Below, one piece after another: positions 37,010 to 64,000 of a DNA stretch of 64,000 nucleotides. Source of the stretch: Chloroflexota bacterium. GTDB taxonomy: Bacteria > Chloroflexota > Anaerolineae > JAAEKA01. Made by a program: the position numbers and the translations under genes. The notes under the pieces are model-generated. The model did not search any database, had not been told where the DNA came from, and saw nothing but the letters and a program-made list of their open reading frames with translations. The DNA lies in assembly GCA_034717495.1 (NCBI GenBank), contig JAYELL010000025.1, forward strand, positions 25,900-89,899, in the 5' to 3' direction. Numbering within the stretch: the stretch's first letter is position 1; each line of letters opens with the position of its first letter.

Positions 37010-37798
37010 ATGGTCGTCCAGTTTATTATGTCGGTTAATACATCACCCAGATCTAACAATGTTCAGCAAGAGAACCAGCCTCCTGGTCAAATGCGTGCCA
37101 GCGGCGGTGCTTTGCCTAACCTGCTGCTCTACGTAAATCGTCAGGCGAGCAACCCTTTGCGATATGCTTGGGAACAGGCGATCATGGCACTGATCGGCTG
37201 GATTCCCACGGTTGTGGGGGTTGCATTGCGCTCCGCCCTTTACCGGTTTATTCTGCGCATGGACGGTGTGGCTGCTGTCGAAAACAGTGTGCGGCTGCGT
37301 TTTGCCAGCAATATCAGGTTGGGTGACGGTGTCTATCTGGATCAGGGCAGCTATCTGCATGCAACCCCTGGCGGAATCGAGATTGGTAGCGGTAGTTTCG
37401 TCATGCACGGGGCTGTTTTGCATGTCTACAATTTTCGTGCTTTGCCCCACGCCTTTATTCGTATTGGCGAGGATAGTCTGATTGGCGAATACTGTGTGTT
37501 GCGAGGGCAGGGCGGCATCTCCATTGGTGATCGGGTCTATTTTGCCCCTCAGGTTCAGGTGTTGGCGGTGAATCACAACTACGACGATCCGAAAAGACCG
37601 ATGGTAGATCAGGGCCTCACCGCGGACGGAATTGTGATCGAGGACGATGTTTGGATCGGAGCCGGTGCTATCATCACCGATGGCGTGCATATCGGCAAGC
37701 GTTCAATCGTTGCGGCTGGAGCCGTGGTTACCTCGGACGTGCCGGACCGAACTGTAGTGGGTGGTGTGCCAGCCCGCCCTTTGAAGACCCTGTCCTGA
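37010..37798 (+). CDS. left-handed beta-helix (hexapeptide-repeat) O-acetyltransferase, WcaF/NeuD-like
   Basis: Hexapeptide repeats ([13 protein letters not shown]...[27 protein letters not shown]). Confidence 0.8.
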
Positions 37799-37859
37799 TG
37801 TCGCGAATGGATTATCCACGCACACTGTGCAAAAAAAAGAAGAAATGGGAGATTTCTCC

Positions 37860-39062
37860 ATGACAACACTTTCCGTCGTCATTCCGGCTCTTAACGAAGA
37901 AGACGGCATTGCGGAAATAATGGCGCGGGTGCTGGCGGTTGGTTCCGACCTGGCGTCCATGGGCGTCGATGATCTGGAGTTGATCGTGGTAGATGACGGT
38001 TCCACCGACCGCACCGCTGAGATCGTGGAATCCACACCGGGCGTAAAGCTTGTGCAGCATCCGGTGAACAAAGGTTATGGTGCCGCTCTGAAATCGGGTT
38101 TTCGTTCAGCCGAAGGTGAGTTTTTGGGCTTTCTTGATGCTGATGGCACCTATCCGCCCGAGTATTTCCCTCAGTTGTGCCAGGTTTTGCTGCAAAATGG
38201 CAACGATATTGTCGTGGGGTCGAGAATGGCTGGCGCTGACAGCGATATGCCAATGACCCGCCGTATCGGCAATACCGTTTTTGCCAGCATGATCAGTATT
38301 CTCAGCCGTCAACGGATCACTGATAGCGCCAGCGGTATGCGGGTTTTCCGTCGAGAGGCCCTTGAGAAGCTCTATCCGCTGCCCGATGGCCTCAACTTCA
38401 CACCGATCATGAGTACTCGCGCCCTTCACGAGGATATTCACATGGTGGAGGTGCCGATTCCCTACAGCGAGCGAGTGGGCGATTCCAAGCTTAGCGTCGT
38501 ACGGGATGGAACTCGCTACGTCCAGACCATTACCTGGACGGCGATGAACTACAATCCTGTGCGAATTTTGGGTGGCCTGGGTCTTATTGCACTGGGCCTG
38601 GCAGGCGTGATCGCACTGGTCACCTTCGTTGCCCGGCTTAGCGGGGTGACTGAGGTCGGTCCTATTGGAGCGTTTGCCCTGTTTTCGATGATGATATTGG
38701 CAATGACCGGAGTCAGTCTCTTCAACCTGGGGGCAACTTTCAATTATCTCGTGTCTCTATTTCACCATCGCCCCGTCAAGCAGGGGTTGTTCGGTAAGCC
38801 GATTTTTGATCCATCCCTGGATCGCCATTTTTGGTGGATGGGATTGCTCTTGGGCGTTGCCGGGCTTTTGCTGGGCGTTGCGAGTCTGATTATGGCGCTC
38901 AACGGCTGGCCCGCGGGCAAGATGTGGTTTTACTACCTTCTCAGCGCTGTACTCTTTCTCTTGGGACTCCAGTTTGTCATGTCGTGGATTCTGATGCGGG
39001 TTCTCGAGGAGTTGAGTGAGCGTGATGCGCTGGCAGCTAAGGACCTTGGTACCAAGTTTTAG
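37860..39062 (+). CDS. GT2 polyprenyl-phosphate sugar synthase (DPM1/GtrB-like) with C-terminal TM anchor
   Basis: LSVVIPALNEE, VVDDGSTDRT, DAD motifs; 4 C-terminal TM helices as in GtrB/ArnC. Confidence 0.8.
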   Translation: MTTLSVVIPALNEEDGIAEIMARVLAVGSDLASMGVDDLELIVVDDGSTDRTAEIVESTPGVKLVQHPVNKGYGAALKSGFRSAEGEFLGFLDADGTYPPEYFPQLCQVLLQNGNDIVVGSRMAGADSDMPMTRRIGNTVFASMISILSRQRITDSASGMRVFRREALEKLYPLPDGLNFTPIMSTRALHEDIHMVEVPIPYSERVGDSKLSVVRDGTRYVQTITWTAMNYNPVRILGGLGLIALGLAGVIALVTFVARLSGVTEVGPIGAFALFSMMILAMTGVSLFNLGATFNYLVSLFHHRPVKQGLFGKPIFDPSLDRHFWWMGLLLGVAGLLLGVASLIMALNGWPAGKMWFYYLLSAVLFLLGLQFVMSWILMRVLEELSERDALAAKDLGTKF

Positions 39063-39105
39063 TGTTTGAGGGGATAACGTCTGAGGTGAAAGTGGAGAGT
39101 TCGAT

Positions 39106-40815
39106 ATGACTGAAAAAGACCAACTGAAGCGCAATCTGGGTACTCGCCGGATGCCTGCACTGCGCCCGTCCAGTTTTCCTGATGCCGGTGCCATCGTGGA
39201 GACACTGACCTCGTCAGCACGTCCCCCGGTCGGTGTAGATATTCTGCTCGTCAACCCACCATCACCCGATGGTGGGATATGGATCCGCAGCCAGCATCGG
39301 GTAGGCCGACGCAGCCGGGAGAACATGATATGGCCTCAGATCGGTCTTGCTCAAATGGCTGCCTTGTTGGCCCCAGACTATACTGTCGAGGTCGTTGATG
39401 CCATCGCGAGCAGGATGTCCTGGCAGGAATTCGAACGTTTGCTGGAAGAAAAATATCCCAGGTATTACCTTACTCAGGTTACGGCGCCGACGTTGCGCAA
39501 CGATATGTATGGTGTCTTTCTGGCCAAATCCTTGGGGTCTCAGACGATTGCGTTCGGAACCCACGTCACGCCCATGACCCTCGAGACCATGCGCCCTTTT
39601 CCTGCGCTGGACTTCATTCTGCGCGGCGAACCGGAGGCCACACTACGCGAACTACTGGATACTTTGCAGGATCAGGAACCCAGTGACCCTCACGTCGCCA
39701 AGATGGTGGAAGACACCAGGTTGGCCAGAGGCACCACGGCACGCAAGACCAGGGACAGCGACCTGGAGCTGCAGTTGTCACCGTTCGCGCCTGCCACACT
39801 TGAACGAATAGGGAAGGCAACGACGGCATCGGCCATGGAGTCGCCGCTTGCCGGTATTCTGGGCCTTGCATGGCGGTATGATAATGAGATCATAATCAAC
39901 CGGGATCGCCCCTTTTTTCCCGATCTGGACGATCTGCCCATGCCACTGCACCATCTGTTGCCATATGAAAAGCAGCATATGCCGATGCTGAAGGGCCCAT
40001 TTACGTTCATCGTGACCAGCCGCGGCTGCCCTGCAGGTTGTAAATATTGCATCAAACATGTGTCGTACCAGAACAGCGTTCGCCTGCGCTCGCCAGAGAA
40101 GCTATACGAAGAACTGGTTATCCTTTCAGAACTGGGGATTCACAATGTTCATATGTACGCCGATCTGTTCACGGTCAGCCGCGAGCAAGTTGTAACTTTG
40201 TGCAATCTCATCATCGAAAATGGCTTGAAGGTGACCTGGACCTGCAACAGCCGTGTCGACTTCGTTGACGCGGAAATGTTGCAACTGATGGGGCAAGCCG
40301 GGTGCTTCATGATTTCCTGGGGAATCGAAAGCGCCAATGAGGAGATATTGAAACGGGCTCGCAAGGGCTATCGCAAGGAACAGGCCTACGATGCACTTGT
40401 GTGGGCCAGAGAAGCCGGAATCAAGAATTGGGGCTATTTCATCATTGGACTGCCCGGTGAAACCGAGGAGTCGATCCAGGAAACGATCACGTACAGCAAA
40501 ATGCTGCCCCTTGACATCGCCCTGTTCCACATTGCGGCACCCTATCCTGGCACCCCTTTCTTCTACGATGTGGTGGAGAATGGTTGGTTTCGACCGGGTA
40601 CCAAGTGGGAGGAGGTCGACATGGATCAGTCTACCGTGCTCGACTATAGTAATCTGTCGGCTGAAAGGCTCGAGTATTGGCAGAAGCGTGCCACGCGGGA
40701 ATGGTCCTTCAGGCCGGGCCCGATGTGGACCTTTGTTAAAGGCCTCAATAGCTGGGAGGGGTTCAAGAGCGCCATGAGTATCGGCGTTCAGACGCTTAAG
40801 TACGTATGGAGCTAG
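39106..40815 (+). CDS. B12-binding domain radical SAM enzyme
   Basis: N-terminal cobalamin-binding-like domain (ILLVNPP...), radical SAM CxxxCxxC (TSRGCPAGCKYC); stop 2 nt before next gene. Confidence 0.8.
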   Translation: MTEKDQLKRNLGTRRMPALRPSSFPDAGAIVETLTSSARPPVGVDILLVNPPSPDGGIWIRSQHRVGRRSRENMIWPQIGLAQMAALLAPDYTVEVVDAIASRMSWQEFERLLEEKYPRYYLTQVTAPTLRNDMYGVFLAKSLGSQTIAFGTHVTPMTLETMRPFPALDFILRGEPEATLRELLDTLQDQEPSDPHVAKMVEDTRLARGTTARKTRDSDLELQLSPFAPATLERIGKATTASAMESPLAGILGLAWRYDNEIIINRDRPFFPDLDDLPMPLHHLLPYEKQHMPMLKGPFTFIVTSRGCPAGCKYCIKHVSYQNSVRLRSPEKLYEELVILSELGIHNVHMYADLFTVSREQVVTLCNLIIENGLKVTWTCNSRVDFVDAEMLQLMGQAGCFMISWGIESANEEILKRARKGYRKEQAYDALVWAREAGIKNWGYFIIGLPGETEESIQETITYSKMLPLDIALFHIAAPYPGTPFFYDVVENGWFRPGTKWEEVDMDQSTVLDYSNLSAERLEYWQKRATREWSFRPGPMWTFVKGLNSWEGFKSAMSIGVQTLKYVWS

Positions 40816-40816
40816 C

Positions 40817-42526
40817 TTGAGTCATCAATACGGCGATCCAACCCTGGGCGATGGCGTTGGGCCACACTCGCCGGTCACTCTCTTTCGGCCACTGCCACTG
40901 CTCATTTCGGGGGGCTTGATCATTAGCGCTTTGATAGGTGTTTGGGCAGCCTACGACCGGGAACAAGCCTGGATGCGGTTCTCGCTCATCTCCATCGGTG
41001 TGGCACTGATGCTCGGCATTGCCTGGATGGGTTGGCGGGGACGAATGGATATACTGGGCATCTTTGGCCTGCTCTGTGCACTGCTTGGGGCAGCAATCGG
41101 TGCCTATTTCCTTCTGACCTTCGACTGGGCGGGCAATCAGGGAAAATTTGCGCCGATCCAAGCGGCAGGCCTCTGGCTTCAGGTCCATCGCCCCGCAATC
41201 CCGGTTCCCGAGGATATCAACGCCAATGTGGCTGGTAGCAGTCTGGCGATTCTTCTTCCACTGGGGGCTGTGGGCCTTTTCTGGGGATGGAGTCGCGACA
41301 AGCGTACCGTGGCGATCATCGCTGCCCTGTCGTTGCTCTTCGGGTTTCTGATTCTATTCCTGACGCAGTCCCGAGCAGCCTGGCTCGGACTGGCAGCCGG
41401 CCTGGCTGTGGCCCTCTACCTGGCAGTGCGACCAGGCCTGGAAAACTTCCCGCGCCGGCGTCTGCTGTTGGACCTGGTTGCTTTGGCAGGGGGGCTTCTT
41501 GTCCTTGTCCTCTTCTGGCTGGTGGCATCGAGCCCCACTCTTGCCGAATCGTTGGGCTCGATCGGCGTTGGTGTCAGCCTCACCAATCGCGCCGAGCTCT
41601 GGCGCGACGGGATGAACCTGGTAGCAGATTACCCCTTCACGGGCAGCGGCCTGGGCAGCACCATGATGGTCTACTCCACCTATGGACGGTTGTTGCATGT
41701 CGGATTTATCACCCATATGCACAATCTGTTCTTGCAGATCACCATCGAGCAGGGAATACCCGGGCTTCTTTTTTTTCTGCTGTTGCTTGTCCTGGCCTGG
41801 TGGAGTCTGCTAAGCGCCTACCGGTCGGGTGAAAACCGCTGCTTCTGCGTACCGGTGGCAGCATCCTTGGTCGCCCTGGTGGTGCAAGGCCTTGTCGACG
41901 TTGGTATTTATGCCAGCTACGCGCTTCCGGTTCTTTTCTTGCCCATCGGGTTTGCACTGGCCCTGGGGCAGCCACCCAGGGTACTCCGGCGAAGCAAGAA
42001 TGTCACCCTGGCACTGACGAGTGTATCGATCATCGTCGTGGCAATGTGTGTAGTGTTGATTGTACCTTCCAGTCAGGCTGCATTGCAAGCCAATCTGGGC
42101 GCCGTTGCCCAAACACAGCGGGAACTCTCCGCTTACAGCTGGCCCGAGTGGCCCATTCAGGATGCCCTCAGGCGCTCACCTGATATTGACCTGTCAGCTG
42201 CAATTGCCCGATACAAAGCAGCACTTGATCGTGATCCAAAGAATGCAACCGGCAACCGGCGACTGGGGCAGATTGAGCTTTCAAGAGGCAGGTATGAAGC
42301 GGCCCGATGGTACCTGGAAGCAGCGTATGCGACATCACCTCGTCAATCGGTGACCCGGCATCTGCTGGGCGAGGTATATGCCATCGATGGCGATCTGGAC
42401 CTGGCAACGTCCTTTCTTCGCAGCGTCGACATCGGCCATGGCCAGTTTCAGACCAGGGTATGGTGGTACGAAACTGTCGGCGAGACTGAAGGAGCTCAGC
42501 GGTTACGGGAAGCTGGCGGGTTTTGA
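40817..42526 (+). CDS. WaaL/O-antigen-ligase-family (Wzy_C) membrane protein with C-terminal TPR domain
   Basis: ~11 TM with LTQSRAAWLGLAAGLAVALYL Wzy_C block; C-terminal soluble TPR-like repeats. Confidence 0.7.
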   Translation: MSHQYGDPTLGDGVGPHSPVTLFRPLPLLISGGLIISALIGVWAAYDREQAWMRFSLISIGVALMLGIAWMGWRGRMDILGIFGLLCALLGAAIGAYFLLTFDWAGNQGKFAPIQAAGLWLQVHRPAIPVPEDINANVAGSSLAILLPLGAVGLFWGWSRDKRTVAIIAALSLLFGFLILFLTQSRAAWLGLAAGLAVALYLAVRPGLENFPRRRLLLDLVALAGGLLVLVLFWLVASSPTLAESLGSIGVGVSLTNRAELWRDGMNLVADYPFTGSGLGSTMMVYSTYGRLLHVGFITHMHNLFLQITIEQGIPGLLFFLLLLVLAWWSLLSAYRSGENRCFCVPVAASLVALVVQGLVDVGIYASYALPVLFLPIGFALALGQPPRVLRRSKNVTLALTSVSIIVVAMCVVLIVPSSQAALQANLGAVAQTQRELSAYSWPEWPIQDALRRSPDIDLSAAIARYKAALDRDPKNATGNRRLGQIELSRGRYEAARWYLEAAYATSPRQSVTRHLLGEVYAIDGDLDLATSFLRSVDIGHGQFQTRVWWYETVGETEGAQRLREAGGF

Positions 42527-42626
42527 CATCGGCATGGCCCTGGAATTTGATCATTTTGGCATTGGAGACTATCATGAGGGTTCGTGATGTATCTAGCATC
42601 TTGTGATGGCGAAAAAACTACTGGCT

Positions 42627-42656: not shown

Positions 42657-43307
42657 ATGAAAAAACTATTCAGAAACCTTAGAAAATCCAAGCCTTCCTT
42701 GCCTGTGATCGTCGTTTCCGGTTTGCCTCGATCTGGAACGTCGATGATGATGAAAATGTTGGAAGCAGGTGGCCTGACGGTGGTAACCGACCAGATTCGT
42801 ACCGCGGACGAGGATAATCCAAAGGGATACTATGAGTTCGAACGGGTAAAACAGCTTGATAAGGGTGATACATCATGGGTATCCGACGCGCAGGGAAAAG
42901 TGGTCAAAGTAATCTCGGCCTTGTTGGAACACCTGCCACCTGACTATGACTACAACGTAATCTTCCTGCAGCGCAGTATCGAGGAAGTTTTGGCATCCCA
43001 GAAGAGAATGCTGGAACGTCGCGGGGAACCAACCGATCGGGTAAGTGATGAGGAGATGGCCCGCTTGTTTGCCAAGCACACTCAGAAAGTGGATCTGTGG
43101 TTAAACAGTCAGCCGAATATCTCAGTTCTCTATGTAGATTACAACGAGGTGGTGAGTAACCCCCATCAATCCGTAGGTCAGGCGAATCGATTCCTGGGCG
43201 GGCATTTGGATGAGCAAGCGATGATCTCAGCTGTCGATCCTCAACTCTATCGAAATCGGGCAAACCTGAACCAAATCTCAACTCGAGAAGACTCATTGTC
43301 AAAATGA
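42657..43307 (+). CDS. sulfotransferase-family protein (Sulfotransfer_3-like)
   Basis: 5'-PSB-like VVSGLPRSGTSMM near N-terminus, later RSIEEV.. 3'-PB-like block; soluble 216 aa; stop overlaps next start (ATGA). Confidence 0.6.
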   Translation: MKKLFRNLRKSKPSLPVIVVSGLPRSGTSMMMKMLEAGGLTVVTDQIRTADEDNPKGYYEFERVKQLDKGDTSWVSDAQGKVVKVISALLEHLPPDYDYNVIFLQRSIEEVLASQKRMLERRGEPTDRVSDEEMARLFAKHTQKVDLWLNSQPNISVLYVDYNEVVSNPHQSVGQANRFLGGHLDEQAMISAVDPQLYRNRANLNQISTREDSLSK

Positions 43308-43696
43308 ACCAACAGCTTCTGTCGTCATTGTGGCTGATCCTGGTGTCCACGATAGCTGGGGTAGCCGGTCAGGTTTCGCTCAAGCTGGGCATGAGCCAGC
43401 CGGGCGCTGAGGAGACGGTCTCAGAGGGTGTGTTGTCTCTGATAGCTTTGATTCTGCGCACTCCCCTGGTGTGGCTCGGACTGATGTTTTACGGGATAGG
43501 AGCGCTTGCCTGGATCGCCGTCTTGTCTCGTCTGGATCTTAGCGTGGCATACCCCTTTCTTGCCTTAAACTTTGTGTTGATTACTATCATATCCCGCCTG
43601 TTCCTTGGCGAGACTGTGCCCCTCCTTCGATGGGCAGGGATCGGTGTAATCGTAGTTGGTATTCTTCTGGTGGCGCGCAGCACTACGGCGTCATAA
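43304..43696 (+). CDS. 4-TM SMR/EamA-like flippase subunit (ArnE/ArnF/GtrA-like)
   Basis: 130 aa, 4 TM, EamA-like signature (LALNFVLITIISRLFLGE). Confidence 0.6.
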   Translation: MNQQLLSSLWLILVSTIAGVAGQVSLKLGMSQPGAEETVSEGVLSLIALILRTPLVWLGLMFYGIGALAWIAVLSRLDLSVAYPFLALNFVLITIISRLFLGETVPLLRWAGIGVIVVGILLVARSTTAS

Positions 43697-45233
43697 AAAC
43701 AAAGTGCACGAATCGCTTAGAAAACGCCACAACCGCTCCAAAGCTGGTACTTTGGTTTCCCTTTGTCTGCTGCTGGCAATTGCCGTGCCCTGGCTGGCTG
43801 GCACTGCCAAGGTATCGGCTGACCAACCAGTGATCTGGTCCAAACCGGTCAACTTATCCCAATCGGACGAGAGCTCGGTTCACCCGGCCATTGTCGCCGA
43901 CAGCATGGGGAATATCCACCTCTTTTGGAGTGAAGAGGTGGGTGGGGAACCGATGCTGCAGGACGAAATGGCCCGGCCTGGTAATACGATCCTCTATACT
44001 CGCTGGGACGGCCAATCATGGATCGAACCAAGGGATGTTCTGTACGTGCGGGGTGAATACCTTGGTGACTATGTTTCGGTCGCAATCGATGACAACAACC
44101 GGCTCCATGCAGTGTGGACGGGACTGGATAACATTTACTACAGTTCGGCGCCGGCGGCTGTAGCTGAGACAGCCCAGTCGTGGAGCAAACCGGTGGTGGT
44201 TGGAACCGGCAGCGCCCGCTCCGCCTTCGAGTCTGCTGTTGCTGTTGATTCACAAGGTGTTATTCATGTTGCCTATGGCGCCCGACGCGATGTGCCGGGA
44301 GTCAACTACGTGCAATCGAGCAACGGCGGCGAGACCTGGTCGGCGCCAGTGACATTGTCACTTCCCCTGGATCGTTTGGAGAGTGGCTATTCGCAGGTGC
44401 GCTTGGTGGTAGACAGTGCAGACCGAATCCATGCTACCTGGACAACCTTCCAGAGACAAGGCTTTGGCCAAGGTGTCTATCATAGTCGCAGCACAGATGG
44501 TGGTCTTACATGGAATACGCCCTACCGGCTCGCTTATCGAGAGGATGACGATATTTTCGTGGAGTGGCCCTATCTCACCGAGTTTGCCGACCAGGAACTG
44601 CGTGTGATCTTCACCGATGGTGATGGCAAGGGCCGGTTGCAGCGCATATCGACCGACGGGGGCGAAACCTGGGGTGAACCAACGGTCATCCTGACCGAAT
44701 TGGAAGGCATTAACGGCTATATCATTTCTCTGCTCGATGCCGCCGAGCAACCCCACTTGATCGCAAACATGCGTACCCGGTCTGACGGCACCGTCGGCCT
44801 GTTTTATGCCCCCGGCGCCGGGGGAGGCTGGCAACCGACTGTTCCGATCGCAACCGATCTACCCTACGGCCCCTCATCACACTATCCTGCAGCCGCCGTT
44901 CGCCTGGGCAATGAGATACACATCGTGTGGACCCAGTTGCGACGGGGTGAGATATGGCATATGAAGGGGGAGGTCTCCGGGGTTGAACCTCTTCCGGTGA
45001 TGGAGAGGCTTCCGCCACAAGAAGTTGTGCAGCCATCGCCTACGATTAGCATCTCTACACCAACCCCAGAACCGCTGGAAACGGTGGCACCATCCCGGGA
45101 GCGGGGCGTTGCCGGGCCGACGCCCGCGCCCGTTGCACCGCCATCGCCGCTCGGCGCAGTGCTACCCGGTATAACACTTTCGCTGCTCCTGGTGCTTGGT
45201 GTGATCGTTTGGAAGGGTGTTCGCGCCAGATAG
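43656..45233 (+). CDS. BNR/Asp-box repeat (sialidase-fold) exported protein with C-terminal TM anchor
   Basis: Asp-box repeats SNGGETWSAP, STDGGLTWNTP, STDGGETWGEP; signal peptide; C-terminal hydrophobic anchor; true start likely downstream of 43696 (non-ATG). Confidence 0.65.
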   Translation: MVFFWWRAALRRHKNKVHESLRKRHNRSKAGTLVSLCLLLAIAVPWLAGTAKVSADQPVIWSKPVNLSQSDESSVHPAIVADSMGNIHLFWSEEVGGEPMLQDEMARPGNTILYTRWDGQSWIEPRDVLYVRGEYLGDYVSVAIDDNNRLHAVWTGLDNIYYSSAPAAVAETAQSWSKPVVVGTGSARSAFESAVAVDSQGVIHVAYGARRDVPGVNYVQSSNGGETWSAPVTLSLPLDRLESGYSQVRLVVDSADRIHATWTTFQRQGFGQGVYHSRSTDGGLTWNTPYRLAYREDDDIFVEWPYLTEFADQELRVIFTDGDGKGRLQRISTDGGETWGEPTVILTELEGINGYIISLLDAAEQPHLIANMRTRSDGTVGLFYAPGAGGGWQPTVPIATDLPYGPSSHYPAAAVRLGNEIHIVWTQLRRGEIWHMKGEVSGVEPLPVMERLPPQEVVQPSPTISISTPTPEPLETVAPSRERGVAGPTPAPVAPPSPLGAVLPGITLSLLLVLGVIVWKGVRAR

Positions 45234-45251
45234 CGCGTTGAGGCATTACGG

Positions 45252-47275: not shown

Positions 47276-47372
47276 TTGAAAATCCACAGCTTCAGGGGAA
47301 AGACTTTTCGTGACCCACGCAGGGTTTCGCGGAGTCTCGAAATCGGACAAACAGTTCCCGGGTGAGAATCGC

Positions 47373-52895: not shown

Positions 52896-52976
52896 TGTCA
52901 CCATGTCAATATGTCAAAATGATATCTTGGCATCATGACATTGTAGCATCATGACATTGTGACATTCTTGCAACTC
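52893..52976. repeat. array of direct repeats (gcatcatgacattgt x2) and 6 TGTCA/TGACA half-sites in intergenic region
   Basis: cataatgtcaccatgtcaatatgtcaaaatga...gcatcatgacattgtagcatcatgacattgtgacattc read directly. Confidence 0.6.
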
Positions 52977-56648: not shown

Positions 56649-56654
56649 TCCTTT

Positions 56655-58109
56655 ATGAAACAACGACTGAATAGCCAGAATGGAAAAGTAAAAGCGCTGG
56701 CACCCCTGCTTCTCATCATTATTCTCGCAGTATTGTTGAGGGTTGCTGTCGCCTTCTACCTTGGAAACAGCATCGAAGAGGTGCGCGGTGGGACCTTCGA
56801 CCAGATATCCTACGATGCGTTGGCATTGCGAGTGATGGACGGCCACGGTTTCAGCTTTGCCACTGACTCATGGCCGTATGCCAAGGCAAATCAGCCAACT
56901 GCCTTCTGGTCCTATCTCTTCACCCTGTTTCTGGCCGGAATTTACAGCCTGGCCGGCCATGAGCCTCTGGTCGCGCGAATCATCCAGGCTATCCTGGTGG
57001 GCATTGTGATGCCCTGGTTGGTATATCGTATCGGTGCGCGGGTATTTGATCGACGCGTGGGCCTCATAGCGGCCCTGATTGCTGCCATCTACTTCTATTT
57101 CATCAACTATGCAGCCTCGTTGATGACGGAGTCGCTCTATATCGTCGGAATACTGTGGACTATCGATGTGGCAATGCGTTTGGCTATCCAGGCAGAAGGG
57201 TGCAGTGCCGGGGAGTTGACCTGTTCACAAAGGCACATGCTGCGTCTGGGGCTCGAGTTGGGTCTGGCGATGGCTTTCACACTCCTGATGCGTCAAGTGA
57301 TCGTGATTTTCCTTCCAGTGCTCGGCTTGTGGCTACTCTGGATTGCATGGCGACGAAATCAACTCAAGGGCACCATCCTGGCGCTGGCGGTTGCAGCCTT
57401 TGTAACAGCGCTGGCACTTTTGCCTTTCGTGATCCGGAACTACCGGGCCTTTGGTCAGGTAAGCATGCCAAATACCAATGTTGGTTTCAATTTCTTCTGG
57501 AGCAACCACCCCATCTACGGCACAACCTTTGTGCCCGTCATCTATGAGTCCAGCGGTATCACCTACCCGGAATTGATTCCTCCCGAGCTGCGCCATCTCA
57601 ACGAAGCGGAGCTGGACCGTGCCTTGTTGGCCCGTGGAATACAGATCGTGCTGGAGGATCCGACACGCTATCTACAGCTCTCCTTGAGCCGCTTCCCAGT
57701 ATACTTCCTTTTCTGGCCTACCGGGACCTCGTCGACGCTGAGCAACGCGGCCCGGGTTCTCAGTTTTGGCATTTTTCTGCCCTTTATGATTTACGGTTTG
57801 ATCACTGCCTTCTTGCGGGCGAAAATCGGCAAATCGGAACAAGTCGCAGACACCCAGGATCCCGTTTCGATGGCCTGTGCTCATCTTCATTGCGAATTTC
57901 TTGCGCTGCTTGGCGCTTACATGATAGTCTATACGGCCATCCATATTGCGTCGTGGGCAAACGTACGCTACCGGTTACCGGTAGATGTGTTTCTCATCAT
58001 TTTCGCCGCCTATGCCATCGATGACCTCCTGTGGAGAGTGTTGAAGATCGGTTCGGGAAAGCAAAAGCGGCAGAATCCTGACCTTGTTTTTCCGATGGAA
58101 GGCTCATGA
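56655..58109 (+). CDS. GT-C fold glycosyltransferase (GT39/GT83 ArnT/PMT-like)
   Basis: Multi-TM with conserved N-terminal loop (NSIEEVRGGTFDQISYDALALRVMDGHGF). Confidence 0.7.
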   Translation: MKQRLNSQNGKVKALAPLLLIIILAVLLRVAVAFYLGNSIEEVRGGTFDQISYDALALRVMDGHGFSFATDSWPYAKANQPTAFWSYLFTLFLAGIYSLAGHEPLVARIIQAILVGIVMPWLVYRIGARVFDRRVGLIAALIAAIYFYFINYAASLMTESLYIVGILWTIDVAMRLAIQAEGCSAGELTCSQRHMLRLGLELGLAMAFTLLMRQVIVIFLPVLGLWLLWIAWRRNQLKGTILALAVAAFVTALALLPFVIRNYRAFGQVSMPNTNVGFNFFWSNHPIYGTTFVPVIYESSGITYPELIPPELRHLNEAELDRALLARGIQIVLEDPTRYLQLSLSRFPVYFLFWPTGTSSTLSNAARVLSFGIFLPFMIYGLITAFLRAKIGKSEQVADTQDPVSMACAHLHCEFLALLGAYMIVYTAIHIASWANVRYRLPVDVFLIIFAAYAIDDLLWRVLKIGSGKQKRQNPDLVFPMEGS

Positions 58110-58855
58110 ACGCAATGGAATTTGACGAGGTTGCCCTGCAAAAGGTGCGTGAAGATCGACTTCTGATCGACGAGCTCGACCGCTGGCTCTACGACGAGAT
58201 CAGGCCTTTTTTCGGCCAACGGGTTCTCGATGTCGGTTGCGGCCTGGGTAATTTCGCACGGCATTTAACTGCTAAGGACTTATATATTGGCACCGATGTT
58301 TCGCCGGCCAGTGTCGCTGCCGTGAACAAGACCTACGGTGCCTATCCGAATATGCACGCCCAGGTCGCAAACGCTACCGATCCCCGCTTTCGAAAATTCA
58401 AACGATTCGAGATCGACACGGTATTTTCTTTGAACGTGTTTGAACACATAGACGATCATGAGACCGCTCTTGAGAATGTGGCCTATGTTCTGAAACCAGG
58501 TGGTGTATTGATCCTGGTCGTTCCCGCCCACAAGTGGCTTTATGGAAGTATCGATCGCTCCATTGGGCACTACAGGCGCTATGACATGACGTTGCTAGCC
58601 GAAATGTTTCGAGAGGTTGGCATCAATTGTGTCAAACTGAAGTACATCAACGCCCTGGGCGCGGTGGGATGGTTTGCAAATGGGCGTGTTCGCAGGCAGG
58701 ATACACCGCCTTCGGGCCAGTTAAAGCTGTTCAACAAGTTGGTTCCGTTGATCAGGCGATTCGAGAGTCTGGTGCCGGTTCCCTTCGGTATCTCCTTGCT
58801 GGCTGTCGCCAGAAAGGGATCATCATTGGCGCCGGAATTGAACGGCAAATCATGA
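58106..58855 (+). CDS. class I SAM-dependent methyltransferase
   Basis: Motif I VLDVGCGLGNF; stop overlaps next start (ATGA). Confidence 0.8.
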   Translation: MNAMEFDEVALQKVREDRLLIDELDRWLYDEIRPFFGQRVLDVGCGLGNFARHLTAKDLYIGTDVSPASVAAVNKTYGAYPNMHAQVANATDPRFRKFKRFEIDTVFSLNVFEHIDDHETALENVAYVLKPGGVLILVVPAHKWLYGSIDRSIGHYRRYDMTLLAEMFREVGINCVKLKYINALGAVGWFANGRVRRQDTPPSGQLKLFNKLVPLIRRFESLVPVPFGISLLAVARKGSSLAPELNGKS

Positions 58856-60063
58856 TTGTCCTCCATCTGCTTTTTTTTGTGGTCACTCTGGTCATCGCGG
58901 GCGGCCTGGCTTATCACTATTTCCTGTTGATCGCAGGCAAACCCCAACAGGCAGGAGATATCGATGAGTTGCCACAACCCAACCTCCGGTTTGCGTTGGC
59001 AGTACCGGCACACGATGAAGAGGATGTGATCGCTGCCACTGTCCGGCAGATGCAGGAGATAGACTACCCGGAGCGGTTGTTTGATGTCCATGTCGTTGCT
59101 GACCATTGCAGCGATGACACTGCGGTGGTGGCAGAGGATGCGGGTGCAACTGCTCATCTCCGTACAGATGAGCCTAGCGGGCGAAAGGGCTTCGCCGTGG
59201 ACTGGCTCATCAAAAGATTATTGGCTGATCCAATAGGCTATGACATCATTGCTGTTTTCGACGCGGACAGCAAGGTCGATTCACTTTTTTTGACCGCGGT
59301 CAGCCATGTTTTGGCCGATGGTTCCCGGGTGGTTCAGGGGAAACATGTCATCGCCAACCCCGACAGCAGCATGTTTAGTACGCTGGCCGATGCCGATATG
59401 AAGCTCAACAACCGGATCCGCAATCAGGCCAAGGAAAACCTCGGATTGTCGGCCCGGCTTATGGGCGACGCGATGGTGTTTCGGCGCGGGATTCTTGATG
59501 AGCAATCCTGGATCGGTGCAGAATCCCTGGCGGAAGACCGGGATTTCGGTATTTTCCTGGTTACCCAGGGCGTTCGCATTCGCTTCGCTCCTGATGCTGT
59601 TTCTGAAGGACAGGCGGTCACGGCCTGGGCCGACGCGACACCCCAACGCATGCGCTGGTACGGAGGTGCATTCGATTTGCAAAAACGTTATCTCGGGAAA
59701 TTGGGATCTCTGGTTGTGAGTGAGGGTAACCTGGATGCCCTGGATAAGTTTTTGGAACTCGCGCTACCTCCATTCTCACTGATAGCAATCGGCTGCGTTA
59801 CCTTGTTGCTTGTTCAAGGGTTGCTGCTCATGCTTGGTTTGCCGATTACCGGCTGGATCGTTGCCACTGCCCTGTTAACACTGCTGGCAATACTATTCCC
59901 CTTCCTGGGGTTGGCAATGACAGGAGCACCTCGCCATGCCTATAAGGCTATGATTGCAGGGCCATTTTATGTGCTATGGCGCGTGTGGATTGGACTTGTA
60001 GTGCGAGTACGGCACGGAAGTGTTTCCTGGGTTCGGACAAAACGGATCGAGCCTGAGCCCTAG
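58852..60063 (+). CDS. processive-type GT2 synthase (QxxRW; cellulose/chitin/PNAG-synthase-like) with N- and C-terminal TM helices
   Basis: DEEDVIAATV, D.D (FDADSKVD), QGKHV, QRMRWYGG motifs; TM helices flank the catalytic domain. Confidence 0.75.
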   Translation: MIVLHLLFFVVTLVIAGGLAYHYFLLIAGKPQQAGDIDELPQPNLRFALAVPAHDEEDVIAATVRQMQEIDYPERLFDVHVVADHCSDDTAVVAEDAGATAHLRTDEPSGRKGFAVDWLIKRLLADPIGYDIIAVFDADSKVDSLFLTAVSHVLADGSRVVQGKHVIANPDSSMFSTLADADMKLNNRIRNQAKENLGLSARLMGDAMVFRRGILDEQSWIGAESLAEDRDFGIFLVTQGVRIRFAPDAVSEGQAVTAWADATPQRMRWYGGAFDLQKRYLGKLGSLVVSEGNLDALDKFLELALPPFSLIAIGCVTLLLVQGLLLMLGLPITGWIVATALLTLLAILFPFLGLAMTGAPRHAYKAMIAGPFYVLWRVWIGLVVRVRHGSVSWVRTKRIEPEP

Positions 60064-60120
60064 TTGTTATCCCAGAATGGACAAGAGGTAATTTTCAAAA
60101 GCGAATAGGGTTGACCGGTG

Positions 60121-60129
60121 TGTTATAAT
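60121..60129 (+). promoter_or_regulatory. extended -10 element TGtTATAAT (internal promoter within cluster)
   Basis: tgttataat ~110 nt upstream of GT4 GTG start. Confidence 0.4.
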
Positions 60130-60236
60130 TGGGTTGTTCAGGTTGTTTGTTCCAATTGGTGCTTTCAGTGCGTGGTCTCCTTACTCGTGACGACTCTTCG
60201 AGTTGGCCGCGTTTTGGGCTGCCAGGTGGGCCTGCT

Positions 60237-61337
60237 GTGCGTATAGTCTACGTATTGCCCTCGCCTACCTTTGGTATGCATCAGTACACGGCGGACCTCG
60301 CCAATCGCATGGCCGCGGCGGGACATGATGTAAGTCTGGTTACGACGTCCACCTTGCCGAGGGATCGATACAGCCCTGCAGTTACCATCGAAGCTCCCAT
60401 CACTACTCACAATACCGGATTTTCTTCCGAGGGACTGCATATCGAACCATACCGTGTGTTGGAGCGGACGATTCGGGACCTGGTTCCGGACGTTGTTCAT
60501 ATCACCGGTGTTCACCTTTGGAATGTGTTGCTGGTGCGTCGGTTGCGAACCCAGGGGCTTCCAGTTATCCATAGTTTGCATGATCTCGATCCCCACTTTG
60601 GGGTGCGTTTCGGGAGACTGATCCGGCTGTGGAACCGGCTCATCGTTGCCAACGCAAGCCATGTTCTCGTTCATGGGCAGATATACAAGGAACGGCTGCT
60701 GGCCGGTGGTATGGCGCCCGATCGGGTTAGCTATACCCCGCTGCTTCATTTGTTTCTGAGCTACGATGAATTTGCCGAATTGGTGGATGGTGAAGTAAAC
60801 TACGAACAATGGGCGCTCTTTTTTGGTCGTTTCGAGCCATATAAGGGCGTTGCCCAACTCCTCGACGCTGTTACCAAAGAACCGTCCTTTCAAAGTCACA
60901 CGCCCAGATTGGTACTGGCAGGGAATGGGGCACTTCCAACCAGGTGTCTAGAGGAGAATCCGCCAGGGATTGAGGTGCGAAACCGGCAAATAGAAGACCG
61001 GGAGGCCATAGACCTCTTTTCCCGGTGCGGCTTGCTGGTACTGCCCTACCTTGATGCTTCGCAATCAGCCTTGATTGGCGCGGCGTATTATTTCCGGAAA
61101 CCGGTGATTGTTACCCGTACCGGCGCACTGGCGGAGTACGTCATAGATGGTGAGACCGGTTGGATCGTTTCACCAGGAGACGTCACAGCTCTGGGAAACC
61201 GTCTGTCTGAGGCACTGTCAGATCCAACTGAAATGAAACGCATGGGAATGGCGGGTCGGGCGTGGTATGATCGGCAGCGCATTCTGGAATTCGGCATCTT
61301 ACTGGATATGTATCAGAGTGTTGTTGCTTCAGCGTAG
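60237..61337 (+). CDS. GT4 (GT-B) glycosyltransferase
   Basis: GTG start after AGGTGG; VRIVYVLPSPTFGMHQYTADL; C-terminal GT-B donor-binding region. Confidence 0.75.
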   Translation: MRIVYVLPSPTFGMHQYTADLANRMAAAGHDVSLVTTSTLPRDRYSPAVTIEAPITTHNTGFSSEGLHIEPYRVLERTIRDLVPDVVHITGVHLWNVLLVRRLRTQGLPVIHSLHDLDPHFGVRFGRLIRLWNRLIVANASHVLVHGQIYKERLLAGGMAPDRVSYTPLLHLFLSYDEFAELVDGEVNYEQWALFFGRFEPYKGVAQLLDAVTKEPSFQSHTPRLVLAGNGALPTRCLEENPPGIEVRNRQIEDREAIDLFSRCGLLVLPYLDASQSALIGAAYYFRKPVIVTRTGALAEYVIDGETGWIVSPGDVTALGNRLSEALSDPTEMKRMGMAGRAWYDRQRILEFGILLDMYQSVVASA

Positions 61338-61352
61338 TTTGCGGAAAATATC

Positions 61353-62843
61353 ATGAGACTTGAGACTTCGGGAACCCGGCCACCGGGTTCTGCAGGACAG
61401 TCGGGAGAACTGGAGCGGCGCTTTACTCTTCCATTCCCCCGTCTTCGCACATCGGAACGCAAACTGCTGCTGGTCGTGGTGGATGCAGTGATCATCAATG
61501 CTGCATTGTTGCTGGCCTGGCGCCTGGGCTCTGATCTGGATGCAACGGTGCTGGACCTTCTCGCTCCATACAAGTGGTATATCACACTCACCATAGTCTG
61601 GTATCTCTCCGCACTCCTGTTTGACCTCTACGACCTTGCTCGAGCCGCCAGCACATACAATATTGTTCGCAATAGCCTGGCTGCGGTGCTCGTTACAGTG
61701 CTGGTCTATTCACTCATTCCAAGCCTCTCCCCCCCGTTGCTGCGGCGTACCCTGATCTTCCTGTTCACAGGCTTTGCCGTGGTGGGTATTGTTGGGTGGC
61801 GTATAGCCTACGTACAGCTTTTTGTTCAGCCCTGGTTCACGCAACGGGCGCTTGTCGTGGGAGCCGGATGGGCCGGGCGCACCCTTGTTCAGGAGATGGC
61901 ATTGGCGCCCCAGGACGCCAACCCCTACCGGGGAACCGGGTACGAGCTATTGGGTTTCATTGACGACGACCCCAACTATGAGGGCACAGACGTGGATGGC
62001 ATTCCCGTGTTGGGCGGGCAAGAGGTGTTGATACCCATGGCCGAAGCCCTGCAGGTTGAAGAGGTGATCGTGGCCATCACGCATCGCCACGCCATGGCGG
62101 ATGAACTCTTCGACGATCTGCTTCGTTGTCGTGAATTGGGAATTCACGTCTCCCCAATGTCCACTGTCTACGAGCGTTTGCTGGGCCGGGTTCCGGTTCT
62201 GCACGTCGGTCGCGATCTCTTCACGGCCCTACCTACAAAAGACGAGTCCTCATACCGGCTCTATCGAATCTTCAAGCGTGGCGTAGACCTGCTTTCGGCG
62301 TCTGTGGGTTTGCTGGTGCTTGCCGTCGTCGCGCCGCTGATCGCATTGGTGAATGCTGTTACCTCGCCTGGCCCTCTGTTTTACGACCAGGAGCGGGTCG
62401 GCAAGGGTGGGCGCACTTTTGGCTGCTACAAATTCCGCTCCATGATTCCCGATGCTGAGGCTGACACCGGTGCCGTTTGGGCGCAATCGGATGACGATCG
62501 GATCACACCGGTCGGCCGCGTGATCCGGCGGGCGCGCATTGACGAGTTACCTCAATTCATCAATGTACTGAAGGGTGACATGAGTCTGATCGGCCCCCGC
62601 CCGGAACGCCCCCAATTCGTGGAAACCTTGTCCCATACAATTCCCTTTTACCGGGCACGTCATGCTATGCGGCCGGGCATCACCGGCTGGGCCCAGGTCC
62701 AGTACGACTATGGCAGTTCCGAAGAGGATTCCAGGATCAAACTGGAGTATGATCTTTATTACGTGAAACATGCCGGTCCCATGTTGGATCTTCGCATACT
62801 CCTTCAGACCGTATCGGTCATGTTGCAGTTCAAGGGTCGTTGA
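61353..62843 (+). CDS. polyprenyl-phosphate hexose-1-phosphate transferase (WbaP/WcaJ-like initiating enzyme)
   Basis: N-terminal 4-5 TM, central Rossmann-like region, C-terminal sugar-transferase motifs (FRSMIPDAE, DELPQFINVLKGDMSLIGPRP). Confidence 0.85.
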   Translation: MRLETSGTRPPGSAGQSGELERRFTLPFPRLRTSERKLLLVVVDAVIINAALLLAWRLGSDLDATVLDLLAPYKWYITLTIVWYLSALLFDLYDLARAASTYNIVRNSLAAVLVTVLVYSLIPSLSPPLLRRTLIFLFTGFAVVGIVGWRIAYVQLFVQPWFTQRALVVGAGWAGRTLVQEMALAPQDANPYRGTGYELLGFIDDDPNYEGTDVDGIPVLGGQEVLIPMAEALQVEEVIVAITHRHAMADELFDDLLRCRELGIHVSPMSTVYERLLGRVPVLHVGRDLFTALPTKDESSYRLYRIFKRGVDLLSASVGLLVLAVVAPLIALVNAVTSPGPLFYDQERVGKGGRTFGCYKFRSMIPDAEADTGAVWAQSDDDRITPVGRVIRRARIDELPQFINVLKGDMSLIGPRPERPQFVETLSHTIPFYRARHAMRPGITGWAQVQYDYGSSEEDSRIKLEYDLYYVKHAGPMLDLRILLQTVSVMLQFKGR

Positions 62844-62958
62844 CTCGATCGGGTCTCTGCTTTCGAATCGCGCGGTAAGGCCTGCTGGTACATTGTTATT
62901 GCCATCTCCGGTTCTTTCCTCAGCACCGTGAGCCTCAAACCCCAAAGATCAATCTGTT

Positions 62959-64000
62959 GTGAACGAGGCGATATCATTGCACCCCACCAATGATGCAACA
63001 TCGAAAACAATTGATCGGAGGAAGAGCAATTGGTCAGGGCGTTGGACCTTTCTGGCCATTGTAGCCAGCATCGGCGTAGCTCTTCTGCTTGCCTACCTCA
63101 AGATGCTTCAGGTGCCTGGGATCTGGGGAGCCGATGCCTATACCTATATTCAGGCTGCACTTCAATTTCCTCGTGGCGAGACCACCTTCATCGGCAGTCT
63201 GGTCGGAGATCGGCACCTGGCAATCTGGTTCTATCACCTCTTTTTCGACCTATTGGGTGAAAACCTAGATTCGCTATCTGTGGCACTAGGAGTATTGCTT
63301 GCAATCAATGGTAGTCTTATTACTGGCATTTCATTCCTGGTATTCCGCTCTCCTCTTTGGGCTTTTCTGATAGCTAGCATTACTAATCTTCTTACCTTTG
63401 GCAGTCAACATTGGTTTTTCCCCACAACCGATCCTCCTTTCATCGTTACCATGTCATTGCTCCTTCTATTGTGGGTTGTCGGATCCAAACATTGGAATTG
63501 GTTCGTGCTGATTTCACTCGCATTGATCGCTGGTATCGCTTCCTCGATTCGTCCAGGACCTGTACTTTTTGTTTCTGGCATGGTCGTTACTGTGATATTG
63601 CTGTCCTCAAGCCCTGTGCTTGAGGACAGTGAAAAAGAAACAAGAACACTCCTGTCCTTCAAGCGCTGGCTGCCGCCTGCGGTGCTTCTGTTCCCTCTGA
63701 TCATCGGTATGATTTTTGGAAACTGGGCATGGAACCTCTGGGTGCCTGCAGAAAAGCCACCAGGTTATACCTTTGCCTATTTATTAGTTGATCCAATCGT
63801 GGGCTACGCAGACTGCGAAAACGGCCCTGTGAGTGCACTTGCATGCCAGGTCTCCAATTCGACACCATCTGGTCCGGCAACCAAAGAAGATCGGTTTGCC
63901 TGGTGGCACGCGGTAATGCAGTCTACCTACCTTTCGTACGGAACGGACCGGAGCGACTCAATCATGAGAGACGTGGGTATAGAGACCCTATCACGCTTCC
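62959..64000 (+). CDS. polytopic membrane protein, function unknown; 3' end beyond window
   Basis: Open frame (not in supplied track because no stop) encoding ≥8 hydrophobic helices (WTFLAIVASIGVALLLAYL...); GTG start candidate 62959. Confidence 0.4.
   Translation, partial: MNEAISLHPTNDATSKTIDRRKSNWSGRWTFLAIVASIGVALLLAYLKMLQVPGIWGADAYTYIQAALQFPRGETTFIGSLVGDRHLAIWFYHLFFDLLGENLDSLSVALGVLLAINGSLITGISFLVFRSPLWAFLIASITNLLTFGSQHWFFPTTDPPFIVTMSLLLLLWVVGSKHWNWFVLISLALIAGIASSIRPGPVLFVSGMVVTVILLSSSPVLEDSEKETRTLLSFKRWLPPAVLLFPLIIGMIFGNWAWNLWVPAEKPPGYTFAYLLVDPIVGYADCENGPVSALACQVSNSTPSGPATKEDRFAWWHAVMQSTYLSYGTDRSDSIMRDVGIETLSRF

Follow-up and report, generated by a model that had tools for sequence, protein, structure and literature searches.

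S-layer glycosylation (slg) gene clusters unite a WbaP-type initiator, the Wzm/Wzt ABC transporter, a methyl cap and an O-oligosaccharyltransferase of Wzy_C(+TPR) type, the latter architecture being that of WsfB and PglL (PMC2943079). In a three-component glycosylation system of Citrobacter, auxiliary enzymes diversify the incorporated sugar (PMC11127046), and in the Pgf system GtrB/PgfS and a glycosyltransferase of fold class C (GT-C) glycosylate Ser/Thr-rich protein regions (PMC11092751). Here we describe a locus with likenesses to both: 22 genes, numbered g1 to g22, on the + strand of a 64,000-nucleotide stretch of DNA from a Chloroflexota bacterium (Anaerolineae, JAAEKA01; assembly GCA_034717495.1, contig JAYELL010000025.1, positions 25,900 to 89,899), which we call the window. 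Its most distinctive feature, missed by an earlier sequence-only reading, is a cross-phylum triad of genes for an acetyltransferase, a family 2 glycosyltransferase (GT2) and a radical S-adenosylmethionine (SAM) enzyme.

Chloroflexota are abundant in wastewater, sediment and soil and are mostly uncultured; to our knowledge, almost nothing is known about their cell-surface glycans. A literature search for Chloroflexota glycan loci, incomplete in coverage and no proof of absence, returned no prior description. From the protein families encoded by g1 to g22 we read the locus, with slightly more confidence than doubt, as a composite ABC-transporter-dependent envelope-glycan assembly locus with a parallel extracytoplasmic decoration arm.

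The acetyltransferase, GT2 and radical SAM triad

The triad opens the locus:

37010..37798, + strand: g1, hexapeptide-repeat acetyltransferase (Pfam Hexapep 65 bits), triad gene 1
37827..39062, + strand: g2, GT2 polyprenyl-phosphate glycosyltransferase of ArnC/DPMS/GtrB/AglJ type with C-terminal transmembrane (TM) helices (Glycos_transf_2 122 bits), triad gene 2
39106..40815, + strand: g3, radical SAM enzyme that starts with a Rossmann (B12-binding-like) domain (Radical_SAM 97 bits), triad gene 3

Throughout, Pfam calls are judged by gathering thresholds and NCBIfam calls by curated cut-offs; the NCBIfam scan took in 20 cluster proteins (all except g8 and g22), among which g21 alone reached a cut-off.

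Relatives of g3 were scanned with one genome per species, which gave 80 loci whose flanks extend as far as 10 kb, and these were searched with all 22 window proteins. The nearest relatives belong to metagenome-assembled genomes of Anaerolineae, Anaerolineales and Caldilineales. Homologues of g3 occur in 78 loci (median identity 71.5%), of g2 in 75 (59%) and of g1 in 64 (67%), and the acetyltransferase and GT2 genes stand directly upstream of the radical SAM gene, on the same strand, in 57 of the 64 loci that have at least 2.6 kb of upstream sequence. At an identity of 71% or higher, g3 has more than 120 database clusters; Caldilinea-type genomes match at 62%, and g3 orthologues in other phyla include some that are 58-65% identical. 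Outside Chloroflexota, the triad is found in Acidobacteriota (L059, L062, L066), Binatia (L063) and Verrucomicrobiota (L068, L069), the last two loci having the order GT2-acetyltransferase-radical SAM. A triad with identities of about 60-70% and mostly one gene order in four phyla is a well-defined target in the search for new sugar chemistry at the lipid-linked stage.

The neighbors of the triad in other genomes include further candidate envelope genes. Large cadherin-like/Big_9 repeat surface proteins and asparagine-synthase homologues, which could be acceptor proteins or amidation enzymes, adjoin it in Chloroflexota (L002, 11890-14589 and 16850-20028) and Acidobacteriota (L062, 3-2255 and 3051-4991); the Paenibacillus alvei slg cluster also holds an asparagine-synthase homologue, WsfA. 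At 11612-15948 of the Verrucomicrobiota locus L069, what comes after the triad is a protein with HYR/Ig domains, a member of the FGE-sulfatase family and a methyltransferase like g18 (46-48% identity).

The radical SAM core motif of g3, CPAGCKYC (CxxxCxxC) at residue 308, is invariant in 66 orthologues from four phyla (loci L003-L082). Six cysteines in all are invariant or nearly so in this set. Three belong to the motif; of the others, C366 and C380 never vary and C400 is conserved in 97%, which hints at a second, auxiliary metal or Fe-S site. The B12-binding profile PF02310 aligns with g3 over its whole length at 17.1 bits, below its cut-off of 32.1, so that of the B12-dependent radical SAM enzyme named in the sequence-only reading, the radical SAM assignment stands and the B12 dependence is not established.

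No model in the NCBIfam library names the g3 family, and literature searches, incomplete in coverage, returned no account of it. The best match there is HpnJ (TIGR03471), at 193.7 bits against a cut-off of 577.6, or about one third, and the nearest solved protein is AprD4 (6fd2, E = 3e-25), which NCBIfam labels a radical SAM diol-dehydratase and the PDB record an apramycin-biosynthesis enzyme. AprD4 acts on an aminosugar ring (apramycin C3' deoxygenation), and HpnJ works beside a GT2, HpnI. AprD4 does not bind cobalamin (PMC12931638), and for HpnJ the proposed reaction is contraction of the six-membered ring of glucosamine linked to bacteriohopanetetrol (PMC9204698). Because both of these relatives work on sugar rings and do not methylate, a sugar is the most likely target of the radical chemistry of g3. 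An identification of g3 as HpnJ itself was rejected on its score and on the absence of hpn or shc genes from the window. An AlphaFold2 model of g3 built from 30 orthologues, an alignment that was too uniform, reached a predicted local distance difference test (pLDDT) score of 53 and was not used for a fold search.

The solved proteins nearest to g2 are ArnC (9hwj, 6.6e-22, residues 14-330), PfDPMS (5mlz) and GtrB (5ekp), each a polyprenyl-phosphate glycosyltransferase, and its top NCBIfam matches are AglJ, ArnC and PgfS, every one under cut-off. g1 resembles WcaF/maltose O-acetyltransferase, yet also falls under the NCBIfam cut-offs; its one predicted N-terminal hydrophobic helix (residues 57-75) fits an enzyme that acts at the membrane.

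We propose tentatively, as an idea that may well prove wrong, that the triad is the donor-forming arm of an undescribed kind of three-component glycosylation. The radical SAM enzyme would remodel a sugar carried on polyprenyl phosphate, through a reaction such as dehydration/deoxygenation, C-alkylation or contraction of the ring, and this sugar would then be flipped and transferred by a GT-C or Wzy_C enzyme. A literature search for radical SAM enzymes in polyprenyl-phosphate or three-component glycosylation, again with incomplete coverage and without proving absence, found no prior description. If the proposal is true, many Chloroflexota, Acidobacteriota, Verrucomicrobiota and Binatia would have an unusual sugar residue in common in their surface glycans.

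It is improbable that the triad makes a stand-alone glycolipid end product, analogous to the bacteriohopanetetrol cyclitol ether of HpnI/J/K, with glycan genes close by incidentally. Such a role would suit the position of HpnJ as best named relative of g3, the far stronger conservation of the triad (59-71% median identity) than of its surroundings, the very different gene sets beside which it lies, and locus L002, where unrelated genes come after it. However, g2 resembles polyprenyl-phosphate glycosyltransferases and not HpnI, and the window has no hopanoid genes. What follows the triad also speaks for glycan assembly: among the 56 loci whose downstream sequence reaches at least 6 kb, 33 carry a Wzy_C/TPR gene (g4) no more than 6 kb from the radical SAM gene, a small ArnE/F-like EamA gene (g6), encoding a candidate flippase, is found downstream in 32 of 56 and Wzm in 20 of 56, and GT-C genes recur in triad loci.

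Conserved head and variable tail

By open reading frame (ORF) listing and translation, 22 consecutive + strand genes fill positions 37010-64000, where about 24 had been counted previously. The first 21 are complete and span 37010-62843; g22, with a TTG start at 62977, is cut by the window end. The earlier description of a same-strand run with 4-nt start/stop overlaps is borne out: the genes are all co-directional, every intergenic junction is 130 nt or less, and there are five ATGA overlaps (g5/g6, g8/g9, g14/g15, g17/g18 and g18/g19). Upstream of g1, across a gap of 435 nt, lies a divergent SulP-STAS-rhodanese gene (34400-36574, - strand); GlpX, a GDSL hydrolase and housekeeping genes are found beyond it, and gene orientation is mixed throughout the first 37 kb of the window. 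One candidate promoter stands in the divergent gap:

36865..36893, + strand: promoter-like site TTGACA-17-TAGAAT, 11/12 matches, the best of the region

Counts of promoter-like and terminator-like sites are not above the shuffled expectation. No convincing terminator was found in any intergenic gap of the cluster, and tRNA and Rfam scans of the whole window gave no matches. A single long transcript, or a small number of them, probably covers the locus. Starts were taken at 43704 for g7, 50360 for g12 and 60237 for g20 (the longest ORFs run from 43656, 50324 and 60129, respectively); for g13 the likely start is the GTG at 51642, with AGGAGG just before it, the longest ORF running from 51525.

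The triad is followed by six further genes of what we call the head:

40817..42526, + strand: g4, Wzy_C membrane protein of the O-antigen ligase / O-oligosaccharyltransferase family with C-terminal TPR (Wzy_C 84 bits; TPR_16/19)
42657..43307, + strand: g5, cytoplasmic sulfotransferase (Sulfotransfer_3 38.8 bits, Sulfotransfer_1 34.3 bits) with a P-loop of 3'-phosphoadenosine-5'-phosphosulfate (PAPS) type, PRSGTS, at residue 24
43304..43696, + strand: g6, small EamA/ArnE-ArnF-like membrane protein of 130 aa (EamA 29.3 bits, cut-off 28.2)
43704..45233, + strand: g7, BNR_2 beta-propeller (46 bits) anchored at its N terminus, with a linker rich in Pro/Thr/Ser and a TM helix at its C terminus
45252..46031, + strand: g8, Wzm, ABC-2 permease (ABC2_membrane 63 bits)
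46028..47275, + strand: g9, Wzt ATPase with a C-terminal extension of carbohydrate-binding type (ABC_tran 81 bits; TagH/Wzt-like by NCBIfam)

About 11 TM helices are predicted in g4, which has the Wzy_C(+TPR) architecture of the transferases in PglL/WsfB-type systems. g6 passes the EamA threshold and misses the equivalog cut-offs for ArnE (48 vs 92 bits) and ArnF (47 vs 99 bits); it is a candidate flippase for a polyprenyl-phosphate sugar. The TM helices of g7 are at residues 14-32 and 484-502, and one might speculate that its Pro/Thr/Ser-rich stalk is itself a conceivable glycosylation target. The permease g8 and the ATPase g9 are adjacent, with the 4-nt overlap noted above, and constitute a Wzm/Wzt pair. 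The Pfam Wzt_C match of g9 is sub-threshold (19.3 bits, cut-off 30.4), but a 12-sequence family profile of g9 aligns with full-length Aquifex aeolicus Wzt including the C-terminal carbohydrate-binding domain (8dku/7k2t, residues 32-377 of 404, E = 4e-99); its matches to A. aeolicus Wzt and TagH/TarH range from E = 1e-99 to 1e-70.

The sulfotransferase g5 has the lowest GC of the cluster (0.485) and is present only in the five closest relatives of the locus (L004, L006, L009, L050 and L076; ~70% identity), always between g4 and g6. The SulP-STAS-rhodanese sulfate permease co-occurs with it in exactly the same five relatives. Synteny in that clade extends over the entire left flank, so that shared ancestry accounts for the co-occurrence as well as a functional link through sulfate supply would. 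No PAPS-synthesis genes were found in the window.

The remaining genes form the tail:

47310..49109, + strand: g10, fusion of an N-terminal polysaccharide pyruvyltransferase (PS_pyruv_trans 43.4 bits, cut-off 25.3) and a C-terminal GT2 (Glycos_transf_2 34 bits)
49121..50320, + strand: g11, GT2 with a C-terminal TPR-like region (Glycos_transf_2 118 bits; TPR matches under cut-off)
50360..51613, + strand: g12, family 4 glycosyltransferase (GT4; Glyco_trans_1_4 and Glycos_transf_1, 92-94 bits)
51642..52895, + strand: g13, GT4 (Glycos_transf_1 122 bits)
52959..54197, + strand: g14, GT4 like TIGR03087 (stp1) (Glyco_trans_1_4 89 bits)
54194..55627, + strand: g15, second Wzy_C membrane protein, without TPR, of polymerase or ligase type (Wzy_C 40 bits)
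55677..56648, + strand: g16, GT2 (Glycos_transf_2 91 bits)
56655..58109, + strand: g17, GT-C of the PMT_2 (GT39/ArnT-like) family with ~9 TM helices (PMT_2 31.5 bits, cut-off 26.1)
58106..58855, + strand: g18, SAM-dependent class I methyltransferase (Methyltransf_11/23/12, ~61 bits)
58852..60063, + strand: g19, membrane GT2 of EpsU type with predicted TM helices (Glyco_tranf_2_3 78 bits)
60237..61337, + strand: g20, GT4 (Glyco_trans_4_4 69 bits, Glycos_transf_1 62 bits)
61353..62843, + strand: g21, polyprenyl glycosylphosphotransferase, initiator of WbaP/WcaJ type (Bac_transf 215 bits, with CoA_binding_3)
62977..64000 (window end), + strand: g22, membrane glycosyltransferase with GT-C fold, from a rare family without annotation; the full protein has 519 aa (NCBI hypothetical protein U9R25_05230) and ends at ~64536

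Five GT2 are thus encoded (g2, the C-terminal half of g10, g11, g16 and g19) and four GT4 (g12, g13, g14 and g20). Against the CsaB equivalog TIGR03609, g10 scores 38.8 bits with a cut-off of 213; none of the 80 related loci contains a homologue of its pyruvyltransferase-GT2 fusion. Two of the glycosyltransferases align full-length with NCBIfam families at scores under their cut-offs, g14 with TIGR03087 (247 bits, cut-off 317) and g19 with EpsU (192 bits, cut-off 700), and g19 has a QRMRW motif at residue 265 (window position 59644). The methyltransferase g18 is a candidate O-methylase or chain terminator. g21 passes TIGR03025, the exopolysaccharide (EPS) polyprenyl glycosylphosphotransferase family, at 362.7 bits against 295.6, and supplies a priming enzyme of PHPT type (PHPT, polyprenyl-phosphate hexose-1-phosphate transferase), as in slg loci, and not of WecA type.

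The two Wzy_C proteins g4 and g15 are unrelated apart from their common Wzy_C domain. A third Wzy_C protein is encoded outside the cluster (15292-16791, - strand; 499 aa; Wzy_C 78 bits) and is 28-29% identical to g4 over ~345 residues. Beside it is a 554-aa multi-TM protein (13752-15416, - strand) with no Pfam match and a GT-C-like N-terminal region, and 13752-16791 (- strand) may be a second small surface-glycosylation unit. Between this unit and the housekeeping genes, an 852-aa META/DUF4377/NlpE-domain protein and then a PA14-domain protein are encoded at 16863-20248 (+ strand); both are likely envelope or surface proteins.

A confident structure model of g22 gives the GT-C fold by structure comparison, and it is to this comparison alone that the assignment is owed, sequence methods having given none: hhalign found no match with g17 or with a GT-C-like family from related loci, and Pfam and PDB sequence searches found no match either. 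The family has 32 representatives among 1.84 billion proteins, with D53, Y57, R79, R192, E336 and R487 invariant, and g22 has the lowest GC content at third codon positions of the cluster. A word-indexed search had suggested that g22 is an orphan, an interpretation dropped once a full HMMER scan found 31 distant relatives. g22 therefore adds a rare GT-C family that no sequence model recognizes.

Pfam supports nearly every domain call of the sequence-only reading above gathering threshold. Its WbaP-like initiator, Wzm/Wzt exporter, four GT4, two Wzy_C/WaaL-like proteins, acetyltransferase, sulfotransferase and methyltransferase all hold. Other calls need adjustment. The five GT2, one of them with QxxRW, are present, but the GtrB-like synthase listed in addition is one of the five, g2; the single GT-C transferase is g17, and g22 is a second. 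The ArnE-like flippase subunit and the CsaB-like pyruvyltransferase are upheld at the level of the general families (EamA and PS_pyruv_trans) and not as ArnE/ArnF or CsaB equivalogs. The BNR hydrolase is a member of the BNR_2 beta-propeller family, and its hydrolase activity is putative.

In the 80 loci, homologues of g4 occur in 44 (median identity 42%), of g5 in 5 (~70%), of g6 in 37 (57%), of g7 in 19, at the same position (27%; weak, 23-32%), of g8 in 24 (44%) and of g9 in 11 (52%). g10 and g22 have none, and the remaining tail genes have homologues in 1 to 8 loci each, with varying identity. The five closest relatives have a common left flank (GDSL, GlpX, SulP) and the head up to g6, beyond which their genes are singleton clusters. 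In other loci this position is taken by different sugar genes, which encode a DegT aminotransferase, a UDP-GlcNAc 2-epimerase and a Gfo/Idh oxidoreductase, along with further GT-C-like proteins. The locus is thus mosaic, with a head, g1-g9, that is common to relatives and a tail, g10-g22, that differs even among the closest of them. The 27-kb run is not conserved as a whole: related genomes retain the head, especially g1-g3, and not the tail, parts of which recur elsewhere as separate blocks. The conserved core consists of g1-g3, usually accompanied by g4 and g6 and in many cases also by Wzm/Wzt and the BNR protein; the glycosyltransferase-rich tail next to it is strain-specific and exchangeable. 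O-antigen and capsule loci follow the same pattern, in which conserved machinery lies beside an exchangeable structure-determining region.

Some tail genes have their own associations with the triad. The Acidobacteriota locus L062 is a compact operon of a Wzc-like kinase, acetyltransferase, GT2, radical SAM, Wzy_C, GT2, GT4, GT4, PMT_2 and polyprenyl glycosylphosphotransferase genes, in which the Wzy_C protein is orthologous to g15 (33% identity, E = 2e-54) and not to g4. Homologues of g17 with 42-43% identity are found in Acidobacteriota triad loci, where g14 is syntenic with g15-g17. Because the triad operon of L062 holds the orthologue of g15 and not that of g4, the block g14-g17 is a travelling module in its own right. 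In four other loci (L034, L038, L080, L081) the g19/g20/g21 block lies divergently upstream of the triad.

These separate histories raise the question of whether the locus houses two or more neighboring glycan pathways that work independently, an ABC-dependent polymer pathway (g7-g13) and a Wzy_C-dependent oligo- or polysaccharide pathway (g14-g22), with g1-g6 serving one or neither. We regard this as possible but rather unlikely. The modules do differ in phylogenetic distribution, and in the Acidobacteriota arrangement the triad is followed by orthologues of g15-g16-g14-g17-g21 with a Wzc-type co-polymerase kinase and no Wzm/Wzt; the divergent g19-g21 block, the two unrelated Wzy_C proteins and the two GT-C enzymes point the same way. 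Against this, the genes are co-directional with short gaps, overlaps span the module borders (g14/g15, g17/g18, g18/g19), no internal terminator stands out, and the window has one priming enzyme and one exporter or flippase for a long lipid-linked chain.

Proposed assembly route and acceptor

Each step of the route that we propose for the composite ABC-dependent locus is inferred from the known role of a protein family, and it is the family memberships alone that are reported here as results. g21 would transfer a sugar-1-phosphate onto polyprenyl phosphate, and the soluble and peripheral GT4 and GT2 enzymes g10-g14, g16, g19 and g20 would lengthen the chain at the cytoplasmic face. Tailoring in the cytoplasm would add pyruvyl (g10), methyl (g18), sulfate (g5) and possibly acetyl (g1) groups. 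The finished chain would be exported by Wzm/Wzt (g8/g9), with Wzt probably reading the capped end, as its C-terminal carbohydrate-binding domain suggests. A Wzy_C enzyme, either g4 with its TPR or g15, would then move the glycan en bloc to the acceptor.

In the parallel arm, g2 would load a monosaccharide onto polyprenyl phosphate, g1 and g3 would alter that sugar, and g6 would flip the altered lipid-linked sugar, which the GT-C enzymes g17 and g22 would add to polymer or protein outside the membrane. The GT2 (g2) and GT-C (g17, g22) components of three-component systems are both present. The parts list suggests a glycan that is methylated, acetylated and anionic (pyruvylated and possibly sulfated), and shows where the strain-specific part of the locus starts.

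By analogy, the acceptor is most likely a surface protein. This is favored by the WsfB/PglL-like architecture of g4, by the presumed lack of lipid A (the organism is presumably monoderm, judging from its phylum) and by the absence of LCP, SLH and S-layer genes: Pfam gave no match to these families among the window ORFs scanned, which also means that the linked acceptor gene of O-glycosylation systems has no counterpart here. Since the cluster holds neither nucleotide-sugar synthesis nor acceptor genes, sequence cannot decide between a protein O-glycan and a wall polymer.

A serious contender, though we think it less than probable, is a polysaccharide that is either released or linked to the wall (EPS or a secondary cell-wall polymer) and made with no protein glycosylation; the Wzy_C proteins would then act as polymerase and as ligase to a non-protein acceptor, and the BNR protein as a processing glycosidase. 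It overlaps with the composite scheme because the acceptor is the sole difference. EPS genes in related loci (Wzc-like kinase, UDP-GlcNAc 2-epimerase, DegT aminotransferase, oxidoreductase) would suit it, as would the resemblance of tail genes to EpsU, EPS_sugtrans and the stp1-3 glycosyltransferases of PEP-CTERM-type loci, and pyruvyl- and sulfotransferases suit anionic polysaccharides. It is opposed by the O-oligosaccharyltransferase architecture of g4, by the CsaB score far under its cut-off, and by the window itself, which has no LCP ligase, SLH protein, exosortase, Wza or Wzx.

Several considerations weigh against the composite ABC-dependent scheme. No S-layer, SLH or LCP gene was matched among the window ORFs scanned. 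Modules with separate histories could serve more than one glycan, and g3 could act on a nucleotide sugar or on a substrate that is not a sugar. Classical O-antigen loci do not pair a WbaP-type primer with Wzm/Wzt, though slg loci do. A capping enzyme like WbdD is missing from the cluster, which does encode the methyltransferase g18, and g9 stays under the Pfam Wzt_C threshold. A distance of 18-24 kb separates g2 from the two GT-C genes. In favor of the scheme, Pfam found no Wzx/MOP flippase or Wzz among the 22 genes; however, two Wzy_C proteins are present, and the locus continues past the window, where a Wzx flippase or sugar-nucleotide genes may lie.

Comparison with described systems

The comparison with S-layer and protein O-glycosylation loci drawn in the sequence-only reading fits. 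The slg clusters of Geobacillus stearothermophilus NRS 2004/3a and P. alvei (WsaP/WsfP, Wzm/Wzt, WsaE, WsaB/WsfB) are like this locus in their WbaP-type initiator with Wzm/Wzt, tight packing with overlapping stops and starts, possible capping methyltransferase and WsfB-like Wzy_C protein with C-terminal TPR. In contrast, the window lacks an S-layer gene as well as rml and other sugar-nucleotide genes; it encodes far more modifying enzymes and, besides two GT-C, the radical SAM triad, which is missing from slg clusters. It also comes from a different phylum.

The likeness to secondary cell-wall polymer loci proposed in the same reading is not sustained: CsaB/SLH pyruvylation of such a polymer was considered and rejected on the TIGR03609 score of g10 and the lack of SLH proteins in the window, where Pfam likewise matched no S-layer or LCP family among the ORFs scanned. 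An XrtA/PEP-CTERM EPS locus was also rejected, since g14 and g21 score under the cut-offs of TIGR03087 and TIGR03013 (for g21, 345 vs 393) and no exosortase is encoded in the window.

With ABC-dependent O-polysaccharide export (A. aeolicus WzmWzt, 7k2t/8dku; E. coli O9a type), the locus has in common a Wzm and a Wzt whose family aligns through the C-terminal domain, and, among its 22 genes, none that matches Wzx or Wzz. It differs in its primer, PHPT (g21) and not WecA, in having no WbdD-like terminator, in the sub-threshold Pfam Wzt_C match, and presumably in lacking a lipid A-core acceptor, judging from the phylum.

Three-component systems (GtrA/B/C; ArnC/E/F/T; GT136 pentofuranose of Citrobacter youngae; Pgf of streptococci) likewise have a GT2 (here g2), a small candidate flippase (g6) and GT-C enzymes (g17, g22). 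None has been described with a radical SAM enzyme, whereas here g3 and the acetyltransferase are the most conserved partners of the GT2, and the GT-C genes do not adjoin g2.

HpnI/HpnK/HpnJ and AprD4 provide the closest named (HpnJ) and closest solved (AprD4) relatives of g3. Here, by contrast, no hopanoid or aminoglycoside genes are nearby, and the partner GT2 is of polyprenyl-phosphate type. Considered together, these comparisons place the locus in a known kind, that of ABC-transporter-dependent assembly with extracytoplasmic decoration; what is new is the conserved radical SAM triad and, to a lesser degree, the rare GT-C family of g22.

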